In this document: positions 14,038-58,455 of the stretch, one piece after another | How positions within the stretch are numbered: position 1 is the stretch's first letter | Layout of the letters: every line of letters starts with the position of its first letter | Assembly (NCBI GenBank): GCA_963813715.1 | Contig: CAWFAK010000009.1 | Location: forward strand, 224,001 to 288,000 | DNA: 64,000 nucleotides | Origin: an uncultured Planctomycetaceae bacterium | GTDB lineage: Bacteria > Planctomycetota > Planctomycetia > Planctomycetales > Planctomycetaceae | Direction: 5' to 3' | Notes under the pieces: generated by a model | Database searches by the model: none | Seen by the model: the letters and a program-made list of their open reading frames with translations, nothing else | What the model was told of the DNA's origin: nothing | Position numbers and translations under genes: made by a program

Positions 14038-14350
14038 AGTCGGGGCGACAGGATTCGAACCTGCGACATCCAGCTCCCAAAGCTGGCGCTCTAGCCAGGC
14101 TGAGCTACGCCCCGCGTCTGTTCTGTGCCGACACCCGGTCGAGGCGATGGGATCGCGCCGACCATTTTGTTGCGGCGTGATTGTACCGCGGCTCAAAGGG
14201 GCGTGCCACGGGCGTTAATTGGGTGGAACCGCTCCGGCATCGCGGTTTGGCGCCACCGGGGTCGCGATGAATTGGGAGTGCCGGCCGCCGGTTGCGACCT
14301 TCCGGCGGCCAGCGGTCCGGACGGGCGCGGGTCGACGCTTCGGTACGCGC
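14038..14350. repeat. ~310-bp direct repeat, left copy (tRNA-Pro plus upstream region)
   Basis: Aligns with 22007-22319; identical across the tRNA and increasingly diverged further upstream. Confidence 0.95.
14040..14114 (-). tRNA. tRNA-Pro (TGG), copy 1
   Basis: Reverse complement CGGGGCGTAGCTCAGCCTGGCTAGAGCGCCAGCTTTGGGAGCTGGATGTCGCAGGTTCGAATCCTGTCGCCCCGA; cloverleaf, TTC T-loop, CCA not encoded. Confidence 0.96.
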
Positions 14351-22006: not shown

Positions 22007-22319
22007 AGTCGGGGCGACAGGATTCGAACCTGCGACATCCAGCTCCCAAAGCTGGCGCTCTAGCCAGGCTGAGCTACGCCCCGCGTCTGTTTCTGTGCCG
22101 ACACCCGGTCGAGGCGATGGGATCGCGCCGACCATTTTGTCGCGGCGTGATTGTACCGCGGCTCAAACGCGCCTGCCACGGGGGTTATTCCGGTGGGGCC
22201 ACTCCGGCACCGCGGTTTGGCGCCACCGAGATGCGATGAATTGGGAGTGTCAGCTGCGGGTTGCGACCTTCCGGCGGCCAGCGGACCGGAGTGGCGGGGG
22301 GCGACGCTTCGGTACGCGC
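22007..22319. repeat. ~310-bp direct repeat, right copy
   Basis: Aligns with 14038-14350. Confidence 0.95.
22009..22083 (-). tRNA. tRNA-Pro (TGG), copy 2
   Basis: Identical to copy 1. Confidence 0.96.
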
Positions 22320-38762: not shown

Positions 38763-40309
38763 ATGGGCGTAATCGATTTGGTGGTTGGGCTGATCTGTTC
38801 GGCGCGGGTGTCGGGGCCGGCTTGCTGCTCGAGCGGGTCCGCCAGGGGGCGGGTTACCGCACTCGGGACGAAATCATCAAGCAAGCCGAGGTCGAGGCGG
38901 GCAACCTGCTCAGGTCGCATGAGCTGGCGGCCAAGGAAGACCTGCTCAAGCGCCGCGAGTCGATGGAGCGCGAGATCCAGAACACGCGCGAAGAGCTCCG
39001 CGAAGTCGAACGCAAGCTCGACCGCCGCGAAATCGTGCTCAACGAGCAGGTCGACGACATTCAGAAAAAGGAACGGATGCTCGAGCTGACGCAGCACAAG
39101 CTGGCCGACCGCGGCAAGGCGCTCGAAGTCCGCGAACGCGAGCTCGAGCGCATCCTCGAGGAGGAGCAGGAACAGCTCTACAAGATTAGCGGACTCGACA
39201 AGAAGGCCGGCACCGAAATGCTGCTCGAACGGCTCGAGCGGCAGCTCAAGAACGAAACCGGCGCGGTGATTCTCAGATTCCAGAACGAACTCAAGGCGCA
39301 GTGCGATCGCCAGTCGCGCGAAGTGCTGGCCATGGCGATCCAGCGCTACGCCGCCCCGCACACCTCCGAAACCACTGTTTCGACCGTCGACATCCCCAAC
39401 GACGAGATGAAGGGCCGCATCATCGGCCGCGAAGGTCGCAACATCCGCGCCTTCGAGAAGGAGACGGGCGTCGACGTGATCGTCGACGACACGCCGGGCG
39501 TGGTGATCGTCTCGGCCTTCGACAACGTCCGTCGCGAAATCGCCAAGCTGGCGATGATCAAATTGATTCAGGACGGGCGGATCCATCCGAGCCGCATCGA
39601 AGAGGTCGTCCGCGAAACGCAGAAGGAAATGAACGACCGCATCCGCCACCTCGGGCTCGAGGCGGCGCAGGAAGCCGGCGCCGCAGGTCTGCACGAAAAA
39701 CTGGTCGAGTTGATGGGACGGCTCAACTTCCGCGTGAGCTATAGCCAGAACGTGCGGCGGCACTCGATCGAAGTCGCCCACCTCACCGGCATGCTGGCCG
39801 AACAGCTGGGGCTCGACGGGGCGCTCGCTCGCCGTTGCGGCTTCTTGCACGACATCGGCAAGGCCGCCGACCACGAAATGGAAGGCGGACACCCGGCCGT
39901 CGGTGCCGAGTTGCTCAAACGCTATGGAGAGCCGCCCGAGGTCGTGCACGCGGCGTTGGGCCATCACGACGACATCCGCGTCGATCATATTTACACAGTG
40001 CTGGTCGCCGCGGCCGACGCCATCTCCGCCGCTCGTCCCGGTGCGCGGCGCGAGACGCTGGAAAAATACGTCAGGCGGCTCGAAGAGCTGGAGTCACTGG
40101 CTTGCGGGTTCCCGGGGGTCGAGCAGGCGTACGCCGTGCAGGCCGGTCGCGAGATCCGCGTGATCGTCGACGCCAAGCAGATCAACGACCGCGAGGCGGC
40201 CAAGATGTGCCGCGACCTGGCCAAGTCGATCGAAGAAACGCTCACGTATCCAGGCGAGATCAAGGTGCAGGTGCTGCGCGAGTTTCGCACGGTCGAGTTT
40301 GCGAAGTAA
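38763..40309 (+). CDS. rny: Ribonuclease Y (frameshift near 38795 in the N-terminal TM)
   Basis: N-terminal TM, coiled coil, KH ([13 protein letters not shown]), HD (LHDIGK), [11 protein letters not shown]. Confidence 0.96.
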
Positions 40310-40369
40310 GAGGCGGGTCGCCCAACCTTCGAATCGACAGGCTGATCCGCCGCGGCGGACCGCTCGCCT

Positions 40370-41865
40370 TTAGGGCGCGGGCACGTGTGACGAGAGGACG
40401 CGCTCGGCTGCGGCCTCGCCACTTTGCACGCAGTCGGGGACGCCCACGCCGTCGAACGCGTTCCCCGCGAGAGCCAATCGCGGGTGGCCCGCAAGCAAGC
40501 TCCGGATGTGGGCCACCCGATCGCGATGGCCGACGTAATATTGTGGCATCGACCGCTCGTGACGCGAGACCCGCGCGAAGAGCGGCTCGCCCCGCACTCC
40601 CAGGATCTCGCCCAGCTCCGACCGCACCAAGCGGACCAGTTCCTCGTCGTCCCCCTGGAGAAACTCCGGCTGCAGGGCCCCGCCGACGAATGTCCGCAGC
40701 ACAACTTGGCCGGCCGGCGCGGCCCGCGAACTTGCGGCTGGCAAACGAGACCGACAAAATCCGCCGCCGCTCGACGGCCGGAATCACCAGGCCCGACGCG
40801 GCGAGCGGATGATCCACGTCGCGCTCGCGATGTCCGGTCACCACAATCGCGCTCGACGCGTATTCGATTGCGCCCAGGGCCGCGCTCAGGTTCGCGTCGG
40901 CCGTCGTCAAGAGTGCGGCCGCTCGGTGGGCCGGCAGCGCACGAACGACCGCGTCGAACGGCAGGCTGCGTCCGTCTGCCGTTTCGAGCGTCCAGCCCTC
41001 GCCCGTGTCAGCAGAACGCCGCAGGCCGCGGATGGGCGTGTCGCGCCGAATCGATCCGGCCGCTTCGATGCGGCGCACGAGCGCGTCGACCAGTTCCGAC
41101 ATCCCATTTTGAAAAGAAGCAAACATGCCGTAGCGGGCGCCGCTTTCAGGCGACGCGCCCGCCGACTGAGGTCTCTTCCGGCCGCCGCTGGCCGCGCGCG
41201 GCGCGGATCAGGCTGCCGTGCCGCCGCTCCATCTCGATGAACCGTGGCAACGTGGCTTCGAGGCTGAGTTTTTCCGGATCGGACGTGTAGATGCCGGCCA
41301 CCAGTGGCTGAACGAGCCGATCGAGCGCCTCGGCTCCGAGGCGGCGCCGCACGAACGACGCGACGCTTTCGTCGCCGGTTTCGGTCCGCCGCGGCACGAG
41401 GCATTCCAGTCCGAGCCGCAGTTTTCCCAGCGGACTGAAGATCGGCGAGGTGAGCACCGGCCAGATGCGGGACGGTGCCATCAGCATGAATCCGTCCGGG
41501 ATGGGGACCGGTTTGCCTCGCCGCAGCACGAGCGCCTGGCGATGGGCGGCGTCGGTGGGGATCAGCCGCTCGTCGAGATGCAGACGGTGGCACAACTCGA
41601 TTCCCGCCGGCTTGTTGGTGATGAACGAGTCGGCCCCCATTTCGACGACGCAGTCGGCGATCCGCTCGGTCCAGATCACGCCTCCCAAGCGGGGGCCGGT
41701 CTCGAACAGCTCGACCTCGACACGTTGCCGCGATTTTTCGGCCAGCTCGAGGGCGTGGTGCGCGGCCGCCAGTCCGCTGATACCGCCGCCGATCACCGCG
41801 AGCCGAAAGGCGCGATCGGCTCGCGCTGCGGGTTGTTCGCGGAGAGTGTGACCTTCTGGACTCAT
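40370..41865 (-). CDS. hemY: Protoporphyrinogen/coproporphyrinogen oxidase, HemY type (frameshifts near 41150 and 40720)
   Basis: VIGGGISGLAAA, EMGADSF, QPLVAGIY, MPQYYVGH, GVGVPDCV. Confidence 0.9.
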
Positions 41866-41880
41866 GCAACACGACGAATT

Positions 41881-42936
41881 CTAAAAGCCGTCGTTCGAGC
41901 GGGACGCCCCCATCTCGTGCACCATCGCCACCAGGGCTTTGACATTCGCTGGATCGGTCTCGGGCAGCACGCCGTGGCCCAGGTTGAAGATATGCCCCGG
42001 CCGCCCCCCTGCTCCCGCGAGCACGGCCTGGGTCTGCGCCTTGAGCGTCGCCAGGTCGGCCTGGAGCACCAGCGGATCGAGATTTCCCTGCATCGCCATG
42101 TCGTGCCCCACGGCGCTGCCAGGCGTCGGCGAGATCCATCCGCCAATCAAGGCCGATGATCGAACCGCCGGCCTCGCGCTGAAGCTGGAGGAGCGCCGGA
42201 TTGCCAGTCAGAAAATGAATCGTCGGCACGTGCGTCGGCAAACGCGCAAACACTCGCTGGGAATATGGCAGAGCGTATCGTCGATAGTCGGCCGGCGACA
42301 AACAGCCGACCCAACTGTCAAAAATTTGTACGGCCTGGCAACCGGCCTCGATCTGTCGCTCGAGATAGCCCACGATCGAGTCGGCCAATCGCCCGAGCAG
42401 CGCAGCCCACAGCTCGGGGCAGGCGTACATGATCCGCTTCGTGCGAGCGAAGTCGCGCGAGCCGCCCCCTTCAATCGCGTACGACGCCAACGTGAACGGG
42501 GCCCCGGCAAAACCCAAGAGCGGAATGTCGCCCGGCAGCTGTTTGCGGACGAGCCGCACCGTGTCGTAGACAAAGCCCAGCTCGTCTAGGTCGCAAGCCC
42601 GCACCCGCTGCAGGTCGTCGAGCATGCGGACCGGGTTAGAATCTTCGGGCCGCCGCCGGCCGTGTACTCGAGCTGAAAACCCATCGGCTCGAGGATCGGC
42701 AGCAAATCGGCAAACAAGATCGCCGCGTCGACGCCGAGCGCCTGCTGGGCGGTGAGCGTGACCTCCGCCGCCAGCTCGGGCCGCTTGCACAGCTCGAGAA
42801 ACGTGACCCGATCGCGGACGCGGCGATACTCGGGCAAGTACCGGCCCGCCTGGCGCATGATCCAGACGGGCGTGGTATCAACGGGTTCGCGCCGGGCGGC
42901 ACGCAGAAAGCGACTGTTATGAAGCTCGGGCGTCAT
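41881..42936 (-). CDS. hemE: Uroporphyrinogen decarboxylase (frameshifts near 42640 and 42120)
   Basis: [49 protein letters not shown]. Confidence 0.95.
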
Positions 42937-42955
42937 CAATCCAATCTTAGCAGTT

Positions 42956-43071
42956 GGCGAGCGGCCGGTGTCAGCCGGCCGGTTCTTGGCGTGTTCGGTC
43001 GAACGCGCAATCACGTTTTGATCGCGGGATTGGGGTTCAAAGAACCGGCGGGCTTACACCCGCCGCTCGCC
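42956..43071. repeat. Inverted REP pair (REPIN-like)
   Basis: REP on - at 42956-42986 and on + at 43041-43071. Confidence 0.9.
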
Positions 43072-43911
43072 CGTGCGATCGCGCTTACCTGGTAAGATCG
43101 TCGGCGCGGCTTCCAGCGTTTGGACGACCAGCTGGCCCATCCGGGTCGGAACCGCTTCGACGTCGACCGGCAAGCCCTGTTCGCGGATCGTCTCGCTCGC
43201 AGTCGGACCGATTGAGCCGATCACGCATCGCCGGGCGGCGGCAATCCACGCGACGCTCTGGCTGGCCGACTCGGCCACCTCCAATACGCAATTGAGCTGG
43301 TGGGCGCTCGTGAAAAGCAGCACGTCAAACTGGTCGGTGATCGTCGCCGCCACGGCCCGACGCAGCGGTTCGACGTCCTCGGGCAGCGCCCAGCGATAGA
43401 CGGGAATTTGCTCCACCGTCGCACCGCGCGACGCGAGCGCTTCCGCCAGCTCGTCGTTTGGTCGGCCGTATTCCTGCACGGCGATCCGTTTCGATGCGAC
43501 GACTCCCGCCGCCTCGAGTGCCGTGAGCAGTTCGCGCCACGTGTTGGGCTCGGCCGCACGAACAGTGATCGGCACTTGCCACTCGCGGAGCACGGCCGCC
43601 GGTTTCGGTCCGCGGACGGCGACCGTAGTGCGGCGAAGCGCGGCAAGAAGCTGTTCGCGGTCAAAACGCGTTTCGACTGCCTCCAACAGGGTCCGCGCTC
43701 CGACGCCGGTGAGAAATACCATTACGTCGAACTCGCCGGCCAGGAGTGCTTCAGCAAAGGCGAAAGCACGCGTATTCGACTCGAGCGGCACCTCGCGCAT
43801 CGACGGCACAACCGTCGCGGAGGCTCCCTGACGCTCGATCAGCGAGTCGCATTTCGTCGGCGCGGCGGCTCTCGAAGCTGCAAACTCGCAGAGAGTTCCC
43901 TGGCTGATCAA
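43054..43911 (-). CDS. hemD: Uroporphyrinogen-III synthase
   Basis: VFLTGVG, AVRGPKP, PVYRW, LLFTSA, SIGPTAS; directly upstream of hemE. Confidence 0.88.
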   Translation of the reverse strand: MISQGTLCEFAASRAAAPTKCDSLIERQGASATVVPSMREVPLESNTRAFAFAEALLAGEFDVMVFLTGVGARTLLEAVETRFDREQLLAALRRTTVAVRGPKPAAVLREWQVPITVRAAEPNTWRELLTALEAAGVVASKRIAVQEYGRPNDELAEALASRGATVEQIPVYRWALPEDVEPLRRAVAATITDQFDVLLFTSAHQLNCVLEVAESASQSVAWIAAARRCVIGSIGPTASETIREQGLPVDVEAVPTRMGQLVVQTLEAAPTILPGKRDRTGERRV

Positions 43912-44165
43912 CCACCGTCACCACATTCCCATCATGTAACCGACCCAGAACATCGGGTTCGCGGCGGCCAGCCAGGCGATCGTCACGAGGACGAAGATGG
44001 CGGCGACCAGAACGCCGCCGATGCAGCCCAGCACGAAAAGCGCACGGCGGACCTGTCGAGTTCAACCCGACGGATGGAGCCGGAGTCAATTATAAAGAAC
44101 CGGTCGGCGAAGACTGTGGCGGGCCCCCGAAGAATTTGGCGAGCGTGCGATTCGCTCAGCGCATT

Positions 44166-44343
44166 AAAAAAACGCCGCGAGTAACGGTTCTGAAACGGCC
44201 GACCGGATGAGCGGAGGCGCTTTCCCGGAATCATGCCGAAGCACGTCCGGCTCCACTCCCGGCCGGCCGTTCCAGTGCCGTCGGGCGAAGGTCTGGGTGA
44301 CGAAGAACCCAGGCTGTGAAGGGCGAGCAGCATTGCTCGCGAT
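44166..44343 (-). ncRNA. Candidate ~175-nt structured RNA (sRNA or leader) transcribed from a sigma-54 promoter
   Basis: 5'/3' closing stem, internal hairpin, long irregular helix, U7 tract at the 3' end. Confidence 0.55.
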
Positions 44344-44354
44344 TTATCTCTTTG

Positions 44355-44369
44355 GCAAACGCTGTGCCA
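44355..44369 (-). promoter_or_regulatory. Sigma-54 (-24/-12) promoter
   Basis: Minus strand TGGCAC-AGCGT-TTGC, matching the TGGCAC-N5-TTGC consensus. Confidence 0.75.
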
Positions 44370-44688
44370 GCGAAACACAGAGTGTAAATATGTCGTTTTT
44401 CCCGGGGAATTTTGCAATTCTCGCTCGCGCGACGTTTTTCGCGGCGCGGCAGAGTGCCTTGACCTTATTCAACTGCTGTCGAAGAATCGGGCGAGTGCCT
44501 CGATCGCGGGCGGCGGACGTGCCGCGACGAGTTACAGAGGCTTGACCGGGCGGCGGACCGAGCCGTATTCTGCCAGTGAAGTCGGGCGCTCGATCGGTTG
44601 GATTCTGGAAGCGTATGAGCCGTCCGGAGTTCCTCGTCTGAACTCGCCGTCCCAGGGCAGGCTGATCGGCGTCGATGGGGACGATCGC

Positions 44689-45249
44689 ATGAGCAAAAAC
44701 GAATCTGTGACCGACGAAACTAGCTCGTCTCCCGGCACCCAAGCTTCCCCAGCTCCCGGCTCACGGATTGAAGTCGCCGGCGACGAGGACTGGAAGTCGC
44801 GGGTCAAAGCCGAGGCCGCTGCTCTCGATCAGCAATTCCGCTCGCAGCCGCCAGACAATCCGTCGGAGGCATCGAAGCCGGCAGGACAGGCAAACGCGGA
44901 AACCCCGTCAGCCGCCACAAGCGAGGCGACCGCCGCCAGCGACACCCCCGACTCGGCAAGTCGCGCAGTCCCGGATCGGGAACCGGCACGGGAAATGCCC
45001 GAGCCAACCTTCGCGGATCTCGTCGCCTTGCTTTCCACGCAGGCGATGATGTTCCTCGGACTCATTCCTAACCCGGCAACTCAAAAGACGGTAACGCAGC
45101 TGCCGACGGCTCGATATTTCATCGACCTGATTAGTATCCTGGAGGAAAAGACAGCGGGCCGAATCACGAAAGAAGAATCCACTATCCTCGCCGAAACGTT
45201 ACACTCATTGCGCATGACTTTTATGCAGTGTTCCAAGCAAACCGGTTGA
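44689..45249 (+). CDS. DUF1844 domain protein
   Basis: DEDWKSRVKAE; FADLVALLSTQAMMFLG..ARYFIDLISILEEKTAG. Confidence 0.85.
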   Translation: MSKNESVTDETSSSPGTQASPAPGSRIEVAGDEDWKSRVKAEAAALDQQFRSQPPDNPSEASKPAGQANAETPSAATSEATAASDTPDSASRAVPDREPAREMPEPTFADLVALLSTQAMMFLGLIPNPATQKTVTQLPTARYFIDLISILEEKTAGRITKEESTILAETLHSLRMTFMQCSKQTG

Positions 45250-58239: not shown

Positions 58240-58455
58240 ATGCTGATCTTACGACGAAAAATCGGTGAAAGAATTGTCATCGACGGGCAAATCGAAGTGA
58301 CCGTGCTGCATGTCCAAGGCGGAAAAGTGCGATTAGGTTTTACCGCGCCGCGCCATGTGCGCGTGCTGCGGCAAGAGGTGCTGCGGGCGTCGACAGACAG
58401 CGCGATCTCCGATCCGACCGCTGCGGCTGTTGAAGTGGAAGCGTCGGTCACGTAA
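58240..58455 (+). CDS. csrA: Carbon storage regulator CsrA family
   Basis: MLILRRKIGERIVI..IEVTVL..KVRLGFTAP..VLRQEV. Confidence 0.92.
   Translation: MLILRRKIGERIVIDGQIEVTVLHVQGGKVRLGFTAPRHVRVLRQEVLRASTDSAISDPTAAAVEVEASVT

Follow-up and report, generated by a model that had tools for sequence, protein, structure and literature searches.

The 777-nt spacer between hemD and a divergently oriented DUF1844 gene in an uncultured Planctomycetaceae bacterium raises the question of whether it contains a gene in its own right, a regulatory leader of hemD-hemE-hemY, or no functional RNA at all. The spacer lies in a 64,000-nt stretch of contig CAWFAK010000009.1 (the window, to which positions refer unless another contig is named), and its minus strand reads as a sigma-54-type promoter followed by a structured region ending in a run of seven U residues. 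The interpretation favored here, with a probability of about 0.75, is a stand-alone non-coding small RNA (sRNA) gene that would be transcribed by sigma-54 RNA polymerase with the aid of an upstream activator and would act in trans through a helix-bulge module, most likely by binding a protein. Its own promoter, an intrinsic terminator (stem plus U7), the non-coding character, the intergenic position and a covarying structure all fit an sRNA gene of this kind. The features of the locus are collected in Table 1.

A preliminary description, made from the sequence alone, had placed the promoter TGGCAC-N5-TTGC at 44369-44355 on the minus strand, and this was borne out: TGGCACAGCGTTTGC agrees with TGGCAC-N5-TTGCW at 10 of 10 specified positions, the following base being C, not W. 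Genome-wide, base composition predicts 17 sites with the exact motif and 16 are present; the control spacers N4, N6 and N7 give 14, 9 and 20 sites, respectively; by arithmetic from the genome counts, chance supplies about 0.14 exact sites per 64-kb window. Thus, the motif alone is no proof, and it is its conservation that convinces. In the alignment of 11 sequences from the same genus, the promoter is invariant and its flanks are variable. From the -12 element to the start of the second hairpin there are 42 nt when the first hairpin is present and 19 nt in the four sequences without it, so the promoter tracks the 5′ end of the RNA. Across the wider family, 51 loci (one per genome, the best-scoring matches of the covariance model described below) were searched on the correct strand only, over an interval reaching from 200 nt before to 40 nt after the model start. 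Sites matching at least nine of the ten positions are present in 43 of the 51 loci and in none of 203 equal-size control windows; at a threshold of at least eight positions, the figures are 49 of 51 and 15 of 203. The promoter logo of the family is (T/C)GG(C/T)A(C/T)-N5-TTGC. The genome has a single Sigma54_DBD match, in a 496-aa frame representing rpoN, and 35 matches to the activator domain Sigma54_activat, some of which are split pieces of one gene.

The predicted transcript is strongly structured. A segment of 182 nt (44345-44164) folds at -94.7 kcal/mol, against a mean of -66.5 for dinucleotide shuffles (z = -6.5, 0 of 200 as low). In this fold, two short hairpins, at 44340-44323 and 44312-44293, precede a hairpin of about 110 nt (44287-44173) that is capped by a UUCG loop and has the U-tract behind it. 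The long hairpin is built of a lower stem, the CGGCCGG/CCGGUCG, GAGUGGAG/CUCCGCUC and CCGGA/UCCGG helices, and an apical stem closed by the UUCG loop at 44240-44237. The U7 tract at 44172-44166 had already been recognized in the preliminary description and is confirmed, and the hairpin drawn there at 44291-44314 reappears at 44312-44293. For the irregular helix of about 23 bp that had been proposed between 44259-44281 and 44184-44206, the lower helix (44275-44259 with 44206-44190) stands, but the upper half of the structure (44258-44207, including the bulge at 44224-44217) had been missed. The supposed pairing of the 5′ and 3′ ends, 44341-44331 with 44186-44176, finds no support: 10 of its 11 positions can pair, but the minimum-energy fold makes the hairpin 44340-44323 instead, and the 5′ segment is missing in 4 of the 11 same-genus sequences and lies outside the family consensus. 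The three open reading frames (ORFs) that overlap the region have no Pfam matches, and indels of 1-2 nt in the conserved core of the same-genus sequences break every reading frame, so the core is non-coding, in line with the earlier impression that no convincing ORF is present.

Homologs extend far beyond the genus. With blastn, the region was found in 10 of 11 other same-genus genomes, the exception being a genome that is 65% complete, and no match was obtained beyond the genus, within which two stems already show compensatory changes. A covariance model of the genus sequences, R1, matched 8 of 151 genomes and gave weak matches in five other genera; each R1 match outside the genus has a GG-N10-GC site upstream and the shared core. 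Model R2, made from the R1 set plus the matches from other genera, matched 111 of 151 sampled family genomes in 70 of 92 genera, with exactly one match in all but two genomes. In a sample of the class, R2 matched 28 of the 35 genomes that belong to the family and none of the 115 that come from 16 other (sister) families. The family comprises here the records labelled Planctomycetaceae or Schlesneria; the genome searches were samples run under Infernal's stricter filters, where non-detection is not equal to absence, and the E-values of such home-made models are rough. Finally, an exact-pattern scan of public genomes gave at least 80 stretches; among the matches listed, 26 fit R2, all of them labelled Planctomycetaceae, Schlesneria or Planctomycetota.

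The proposed check for covariation on homologs was run and gave a clear result, with controls far lower. In the model-fitted alignment of 68 matches (63 distinct), 95.0% of the base-pair cells pair, against 70.2% after shuffling, and compensatory changes on both sides occur in 35 of 41 pairs. The covariation score is 0.655, compared with 0.214 for shuffled alignments (0 of 500 reach 0.655) and at most 0.12 with slid partners. Frequent G-U pairs, together with scores of 25-32 bits on the opposite strand against 125-155, fix the strand of the RNA. The consensus of 56 non-redundant sequences reads cGnCnGG-nn-GuguaG-CCGG-[variable apical hairpin]-CCGG-GCGAGCGC-Cuang-Cu-nCCnGuCg. The CCGG/CCGG helix and the 8-nt bulge GCGAGCGC are conserved to at least 95% per position, and the outer and apical stems vary freely; GAAAGCGC in place of the consensus bulge is confined to this genus. 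Of the 51 loci, 42 carry a U-tract (at least five T in 7 nt) after the hairpin; among random windows, 113 of 974 have such a tract. No second copy of the hairpin-bulge module in a comparable context was found elsewhere in this genome.

Two relatives depart from the single-unit form. In L191 (G178:C336:6300-7600), one TGGCAC-N5-TTGC promoter is followed by two hairpin units (minus, 809-661 and 502-376) with a spacing of about 160 nt, and a U7 terminator follows the second unit only, which makes this a two-unit tandem form of the RNA. L192 (G181:C87) is from the second genome with two adjacent R2 matches.

These data bear on the simplest alternative, namely that there is no functional RNA and that a chance promoter-like motif happens to stand beside an ordinary terminator or a palindromic, GC-rich piece of DNA. 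The chance frequency of the exact motif, the good in silico folding of GC-rich genomes in general and the uninformative expression contigs would agree with it. It is nevertheless scarcely credible because promoter, dyad (see below), hairpin and U-tract are jointly conserved over 70 genera, there are strand-specific G-U pairs and compensatory changes, the element is single-copy in each genome, and its folding energy lies far below that of the shuffled sequences (z = -6.5).

If the RNA is real, does it serve the genes that follow it? An attenuating leader for the heme operon had been one of the suggestions of the preliminary description, and it is largely not sustained by the comparison of loci. 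hemD lies downstream on the same strand in 24 of the 51 loci. In the other 27, the next gene is a convergent Pfam-identified one in 15 and a co-oriented unrelated one in 3 (Fic, redoxin and class I tRNA synthetase), and 9 have no Pfam-identified neighbor. The convergent genes encode an amine oxidase, PCMT, citrate synthase, ChaN, a multiheme cytochrome, a PQQ-repeat protein, a GH16 enzyme, a ParA-like ATPase and LeuA, and in six genomes of one genus an alpha-amylase-family protein. The same invariant helix-bulge module is kept with or without hemD downstream. The convergent neighbors and the retention of the module in all loci indicate that the RNA is a gene in its own right. Its place in front of hemD is most readily explained as inherited gene order, which takes in the MBL-fold gene and the DUF1844 gene upstream; the latter is divergent and upstream of the RNA in 8 of the 51 family loci.

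A cis-acting leader or attenuator of hemD-hemE-hemY, possibly a riboswitch, would start at the sigma-54 promoter and in most transcripts stop at the hairpin and U-tract, with a ligand or protein bound at the bulge setting the read-through. It is true that where hemD is co-oriented downstream a further promoter would often be hard to fit in. The HemD alignment of L046 starts 79 nt past the end of the model, and in L045 an in-frame ATG stands 2 nt past the U-tract. The conserved bulge lies inside the terminator stem, an arrangement that may resemble terminator-embedded riboswitches such as thiS/HMP-PP; such riboswitches would also share the conserved internal loop in the stem of an intrinsic terminator and the biosynthetic gene that follows, here hemD after about half of the loci. 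Yet 27 of the 51 loci lack hemD downstream, and the 15 with a convergent gene leave nothing to regulate in cis; the invariant module is kept in both kinds of locus. In the window, the U7 tract and hemD are 255 nt apart, no antiterminator alternative came to light, and dependence on sigma-54 and an activator would be odd for a housekeeping heme gene. The RNA further differs from terminator-embedded riboswitches in persisting without the cis gene and in that no competing structure was found for it. A leader function is therefore distinctly unlikely, and read-through into hemD where the two are adjacent is possible.

A bolder variant would make the helix-bulge module in the terminator stem a sensor of a tetrapyrrole-pathway metabolite or of a dedicated protein, which together with a GAF-domain activator would link an environmental signal (oxygen, nitric oxide or heme status, for example) to uroporphyrinogen and heme synthesis. 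This is speculative and quite improbable; if true, riboswitches or RNA-protein switches would gain a new class, whose member persists in trans-acting form in genomes from which hemD has been displaced.

The stand-alone sRNA gene thus remains the favored reading, and its regulation can be approached from the sequences upstream of the promoter. A dyad was sought in a 90-nt interval, -175 to -85 counted from TGGCAC. TGCC-N9-GGCA is perfect in 16 of 49 loci and matches at seven of eight positions in 18 more (34 of 49 in total), against 0 and 5 of 196 controls, and spacers of 7, 8, 10 and 11 score poorly compared with N9. The 16 perfect dyads begin 104-138 nt 5′ of TGGCAC, mostly at 112-128. This is the layout expected for a putative enhancer-dependent promoter with a site for a bacterial enhancer-binding protein. 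The composite of dyad and promoter was also sought in five complete relatives: it marks only the RNA locus in two genomes with perfect dyads and is absent in two, and in the fifth (G016) there is one match, away from the RNA and inside an ORF.

In the window itself, both dyad candidates (44494-44477 and 44471-44455) are degenerate, with 6 of 8 positions. The first is the candidate activator site whose position fits the family dyad, and it overlaps a sigma-70-like -10 element on the plus strand. The second, in which GTCAAGGCA is invariant in all 11 same-genus sequences, is a candidate for an alternative activator site or for the -35 element (TTGACC, plus) of a divergent DUF1844 promoter. A promoter-like TTGACC-17-AAGAAT is indeed present at 44459-44487 on the plus strand. 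Two TTGACC boxes, at 44459-44464 and 44542-44547 (plus; GGTCAAG on minus), are conserved genus-wide; both give sigma-70-like promoter matches toward DUF1844 and overlap the region where an activator site is expected.

As for the activator, in 4 of the 51 loci, which come from three genera, the RNA is immediately preceded by a co-oriented sigma-54 activator gene. Its product has an N-terminal region of about 170-200 aa followed by GAF, Sigma54_activat and HTH_8. The bacterium studied here has a full-length ortholog at C12:331381-333345, which is 52.8% identical across residues 6-639 and scores 648 bits, the next-best activator reaching 268. The N-terminal half is matched in 30 of 35 family genomes; the other five belong to one genus, in which the RNA was found, weakly, in 1 of 5, and this shared lack of activator and RNA is one evolutionary event, not a statistic. 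As a lead drawn from sequence comparison, the GAF-AAA+-HTH protein may be put forward as the best candidate for the activator of the RNA. In the linked loci, the activator gene sits between an rsmE-like 16S rRNA methyltransferase gene (PF04452 plus a PUA domain, same strand) and the RNA.

A scheme of action can be proposed on this basis. An enhancer-binding activator would bind at the dyad, its signal possibly being sensed by the GAF domain. Sigma-54 RNA polymerase would start near 44343, and the RNA would end at the U7 tract. It would then act in trans via the CCGG/CCGG helix and the bulge GCGAGCGC (GAAAGCGC here). The module is most likely a specific protein-binding site, and the RNA might be a decoy or a component of an RNA-protein particle, like GlmY with RapZ; PMC7073468 describes the GlmY stem-loop as a protein-recognised decoy for RapZ. 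Protein recognition is favored because conservation of the bulge-flanking helix goes beyond pairing and extends to its sequence, because the 5′ region is unconserved (its length ranges from 4 to 217 nt, and it is 13 nt or less in 8 of 36 RNAs), and because one relative has two hairpin units behind a single sigma-54 promoter.

The sRNA might instead act by classical base pairing, in which the pyrimidine-rich strands CCCUUCAC, UUCUUCGUC and ACCUUCGCC or the 8-nt bulge would pair with mRNAs, ribosome-binding sites being one possibility. Of the 36 RNAs, 9 have UCUUC in their 5′ region, where 1.4 would be expected, CUUCAC or CUCCACC-like runs are frequent just before the long hairpin, and the linker ACCUUCGCCCGACGGCA is genus-invariant, unchanged even in the four sequences where its 3′ partner differs. 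However, a universal conserved 5′ seed was not found among the 36 RNAs, eight of which have 13 nt or less in which to accommodate one, and the sequence conservation of the bulge-flanking helix would be unneeded for a pairing seed. Pairing of the 5′ region with the start region of the candidate activator gene was no better than with random windows, 32% of which do as well. The bulge complement GCGCUCGC is found downstream in 4 of the 51 loci and CGCUCGC in 10, a mild excess over words of the same composition. Pairing of the bulge with hemD mRNA at codons 19-22 was considered and rejected: the sites fall on the conserved HemD motif EMRSLIER, which explains the match, and the synonymous positions vary. 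As the general mode of action, base pairing is rather unlikely; in particular lineages, pairing through pyrimidine stretches is possible.

The protein partner that the preliminary description had in mind was CsrA, which a sponge RNA would titrate through GGA triplets. The premises are correct: five GGA are present, at 44273, 44259, 44254, 44248 and 44225, in the 178 nt, and there is a CsrA-domain gene in the window (at about 58240-58389, plus), one of 12 genome matches to the domain (11 over the Pfam cut-off). The conclusion does not follow. Chance predicts 2.3 GGA, and 6% of shuffles reach five; four of the five lie within stems; over 63 family members, the number of fully unpaired GGA has a median of 0 and does not exceed 3, and some members lack the triplet altogether; and the invariant bulge GCGAGCGC contains none. 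A CsrA sponge is accordingly very improbable. The set of CsrA-like genes is in itself unusually large, comprising the gene in the window and 10 further places above the cut-off.

Recognition of another protein by the helix-bulge module thus stays the preferred mode of action, and the question of whether the RNA belongs to a known family can be answered from Rfam 15. At the gathering threshold, the whole window yields only two tRNAs. At E ≤ 10, the RNA region returns microRNA models at 19-22 bits (gathering 60) and, on the plus strand, AaHKsRNA54 at 16 bits (gathering 37), and 13 homologous loci at E ≤ 0.1 give one tRNA only. The scan for 6S, signal recognition particle (SRP) RNA and riboswitches that had been advised therefore left the RNA with zero family matches, and full-text literature searches found no regulatory RNA described in Planctomycetes. 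The expectation of an undescribed sRNA is supported, with promoter, dyad, structure and terminator conserved across the family. As judged from these searches, the RNA represents an apparently undescribed family that, in the genomes searched, is limited to a single family of planctomycetes; the "Rhodopirellula-1" motif, which PMC2864571 lists for Proteobacteria and Planctomycetes without an Rfam number, was not compared with it.

Identity with 6S or SRP RNA was rejected, since the genome encodes both elsewhere: 6S RNA at C16:57869-58062 (47.6 bits) and SRP RNA at C8:324774-324870 (39.5 bits). The new RNA resembles them in being single-copy, widespread in its lineage and folded into a long irregular hairpin with a conserved internal loop; it differs in lacking a central bubble closed by the 5′ and 3′ ends, in its sigma-54 promoter and in having been detected in a single family. 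The SRP RNA, on the minus strand, falls just below its gathering threshold of 40 bits and would therefore escape a default annotation; rpoN (C8:320178-320651, minus) is about 4 kb away.

The RNA shares the logic of known sigma-54-dependent sRNAs, but not their sequence, structure or lineage. GlmY has a sigma-54 promoter and an enhancer-binding activator (GlrK/GlrR) with upstream sites. Like it, the present RNA would be a sigma-54 small RNA with a structured stem-loop and an activator with upstream sites. Unlike GlmY, it belongs to another phylum, has neither sequence nor Rfam similarity to it and no GlmZ-like twin RNA in this genome, and its candidate activator carries a GAF instead of a receiver domain. 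In Pseudomonas, CrcZ is encoded downstream of cbrB and NrsZ downstream of ntrC, and Qrr and LuxO are paired in Vibrio; in all of them, the sigma-54 sRNA gene stands beside the gene of its own activator. The four loci with an activator gene directly upstream are similar, as are the tandem or sibling copies in some genomes, but most genomes, like the present one, have the activator gene at an unlinked place. CrcZ acts via repeated A-rich motifs and Qrr via Hfq-dependent seeds, whereas here conservation centers on one hairpin bearing a GC-rich bulge of 8 nt, and the RNAs showed no conserved seed.

Several observations should be set against the favored reading. The exact sigma-54 motif occurs in the genome only at chance frequency. 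The dyad is degenerate in this genus (6 of 8), and the block taken for it could be the DUF1844 promoter instead. The link to the activator comes from 4 of 51 loci, and homologs of this protein are also found in families where the RNA was undetected. The 51 loci themselves are best-scoring matches, not a random draw, and five of them also trained R2. The covariation alignment was fitted to the model and is biased toward its structure, though the margin over the controls is large. In several genomes, hemD starts about 60-130 nt past the terminator, which leaves room for a cis role. The protein-binding mode is what we infer from conservation, with one module per RNA and two in one relative. Finally, 20 RNA sequencing runs contain part of the stretch, and in the four metatranscriptome runs that were looked at, contigs of depth 2-8 over 43700-44900 cover the promoter, the RNA and both neighbors alike.

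The interest of the RNA lies in its being present as a single copy in three quarters of the sampled family genomes with a readable circuit, i.e., a sigma-54 promoter, a dyad and a candidate GAF-sensor activator, and this makes it directly testable in culturable, genetically tractable members of the family. A specific partner is indicated by the 8-nt bulge, which hardly changes, next to a helix of invariant sequence. The frequent place before hemD-hemE suggests a possible link between sigma-54 signalling and heme synthesis. Moreover, the covariance model can be used to annotate genomes of this planctomycete family.

Table 1. Features of the RNA locus and its surroundings, in window coordinates except for the last row
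Feature	Position	Strand	Basis and remarks
Sigma-54 promoter TGGCAC-N5-TTGC (-24 GG, -12 GC elements)	44355..44369	minus	sequence read; invariant 11/11 same-genus
Predicted transcript, ~178 nt	44166..44343	minus	+1 placed ~12 nt past -12 GC, 3′ end in U7; predicted from promoter and terminator
Hairpin 1, GCGAGCA-AUGC-UGCUCGC	44323..44340	minus	lineage-specific: in 7/11 same-genus sequences, missing in 4
Hairpin 2, CUGGGU...ACCCAG, pyrimidine-rich loop UCUUCGUC	44293..44312	minus	fold; conserved 11/11 same-genus
Linker ACCUUCGCCCGACGGCA	44276..44292	minus	genus-invariant; part able to lengthen the terminator stem
Long hairpin, family-conserved	44190..44275	minus	covariance models R1 and R2
8-nt asymmetric bulge GAAAGCGC, 3′ strand	44217..44224	minus	most conserved unpaired element; family consensus GCGAGCGC
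Terminator tail	44166..44189	minus	AACCGUUACUCGCGGCG pairs with CGCCCGACGG (44287-44278), then U7
Candidate activator site tCGCC-CGATTCTTC-GACA	44477..44494	minus	degenerate dyad (6 of 8), ~125 nt 5′ of TGGCAC; kept in 11/11 same-genus
Second upstream block TGAATAAGGTCAAGGCA (TGnn-N9-GGCA)	44455..44471	minus	conserved within genus
hemD (uroporphyrinogen-III synthase)	43054..43911	minus	PF02602, E = 2e-36; 255 nt 3′ of U7 tract; syntenic neighbor
DUF1844 gene, divergent neighbor	44689..45249	plus	PF08899, E = 2e-21; ORF open from 44542, ATG at 44689
rsmE-like gene upstream of the linked activator (relatives G174, G130)	L179 3601..4407; L180 2592..3419

The host genome measures 7.49 Mb with 63% G+C and is represented by 18 contigs of 82.6% completeness. 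Downstream of hemD, in the part of the window from 40260 to 43014 (minus), hemE is spread over at least two frames, positions 2-95 of the URO-D profile falling in the ORF 42586-43014 and positions 84-279 in the ORF 40907-42790, and the amine-oxidase (HemY-like) gene there is fragmentary. The AAA+ domains of sigma-54 activators are similarly split at C17:414088-414584, C9:83198-83697, C9:299689-300187 and C7:851771-852272. Together with the completeness of 82.6% in 18 contigs, the split genes look like assembly indel errors rather than true pseudogenes, and homopolymer lengths, that of the U7 tract for instance, may consequently be off by one base. The only Rfam hits of the window, two tRNA genes at 14040-14114 and 22009-22083 (both minus), lie 8 kb apart with identical Rfam score (67 bits) and length, and they may be duplicates.

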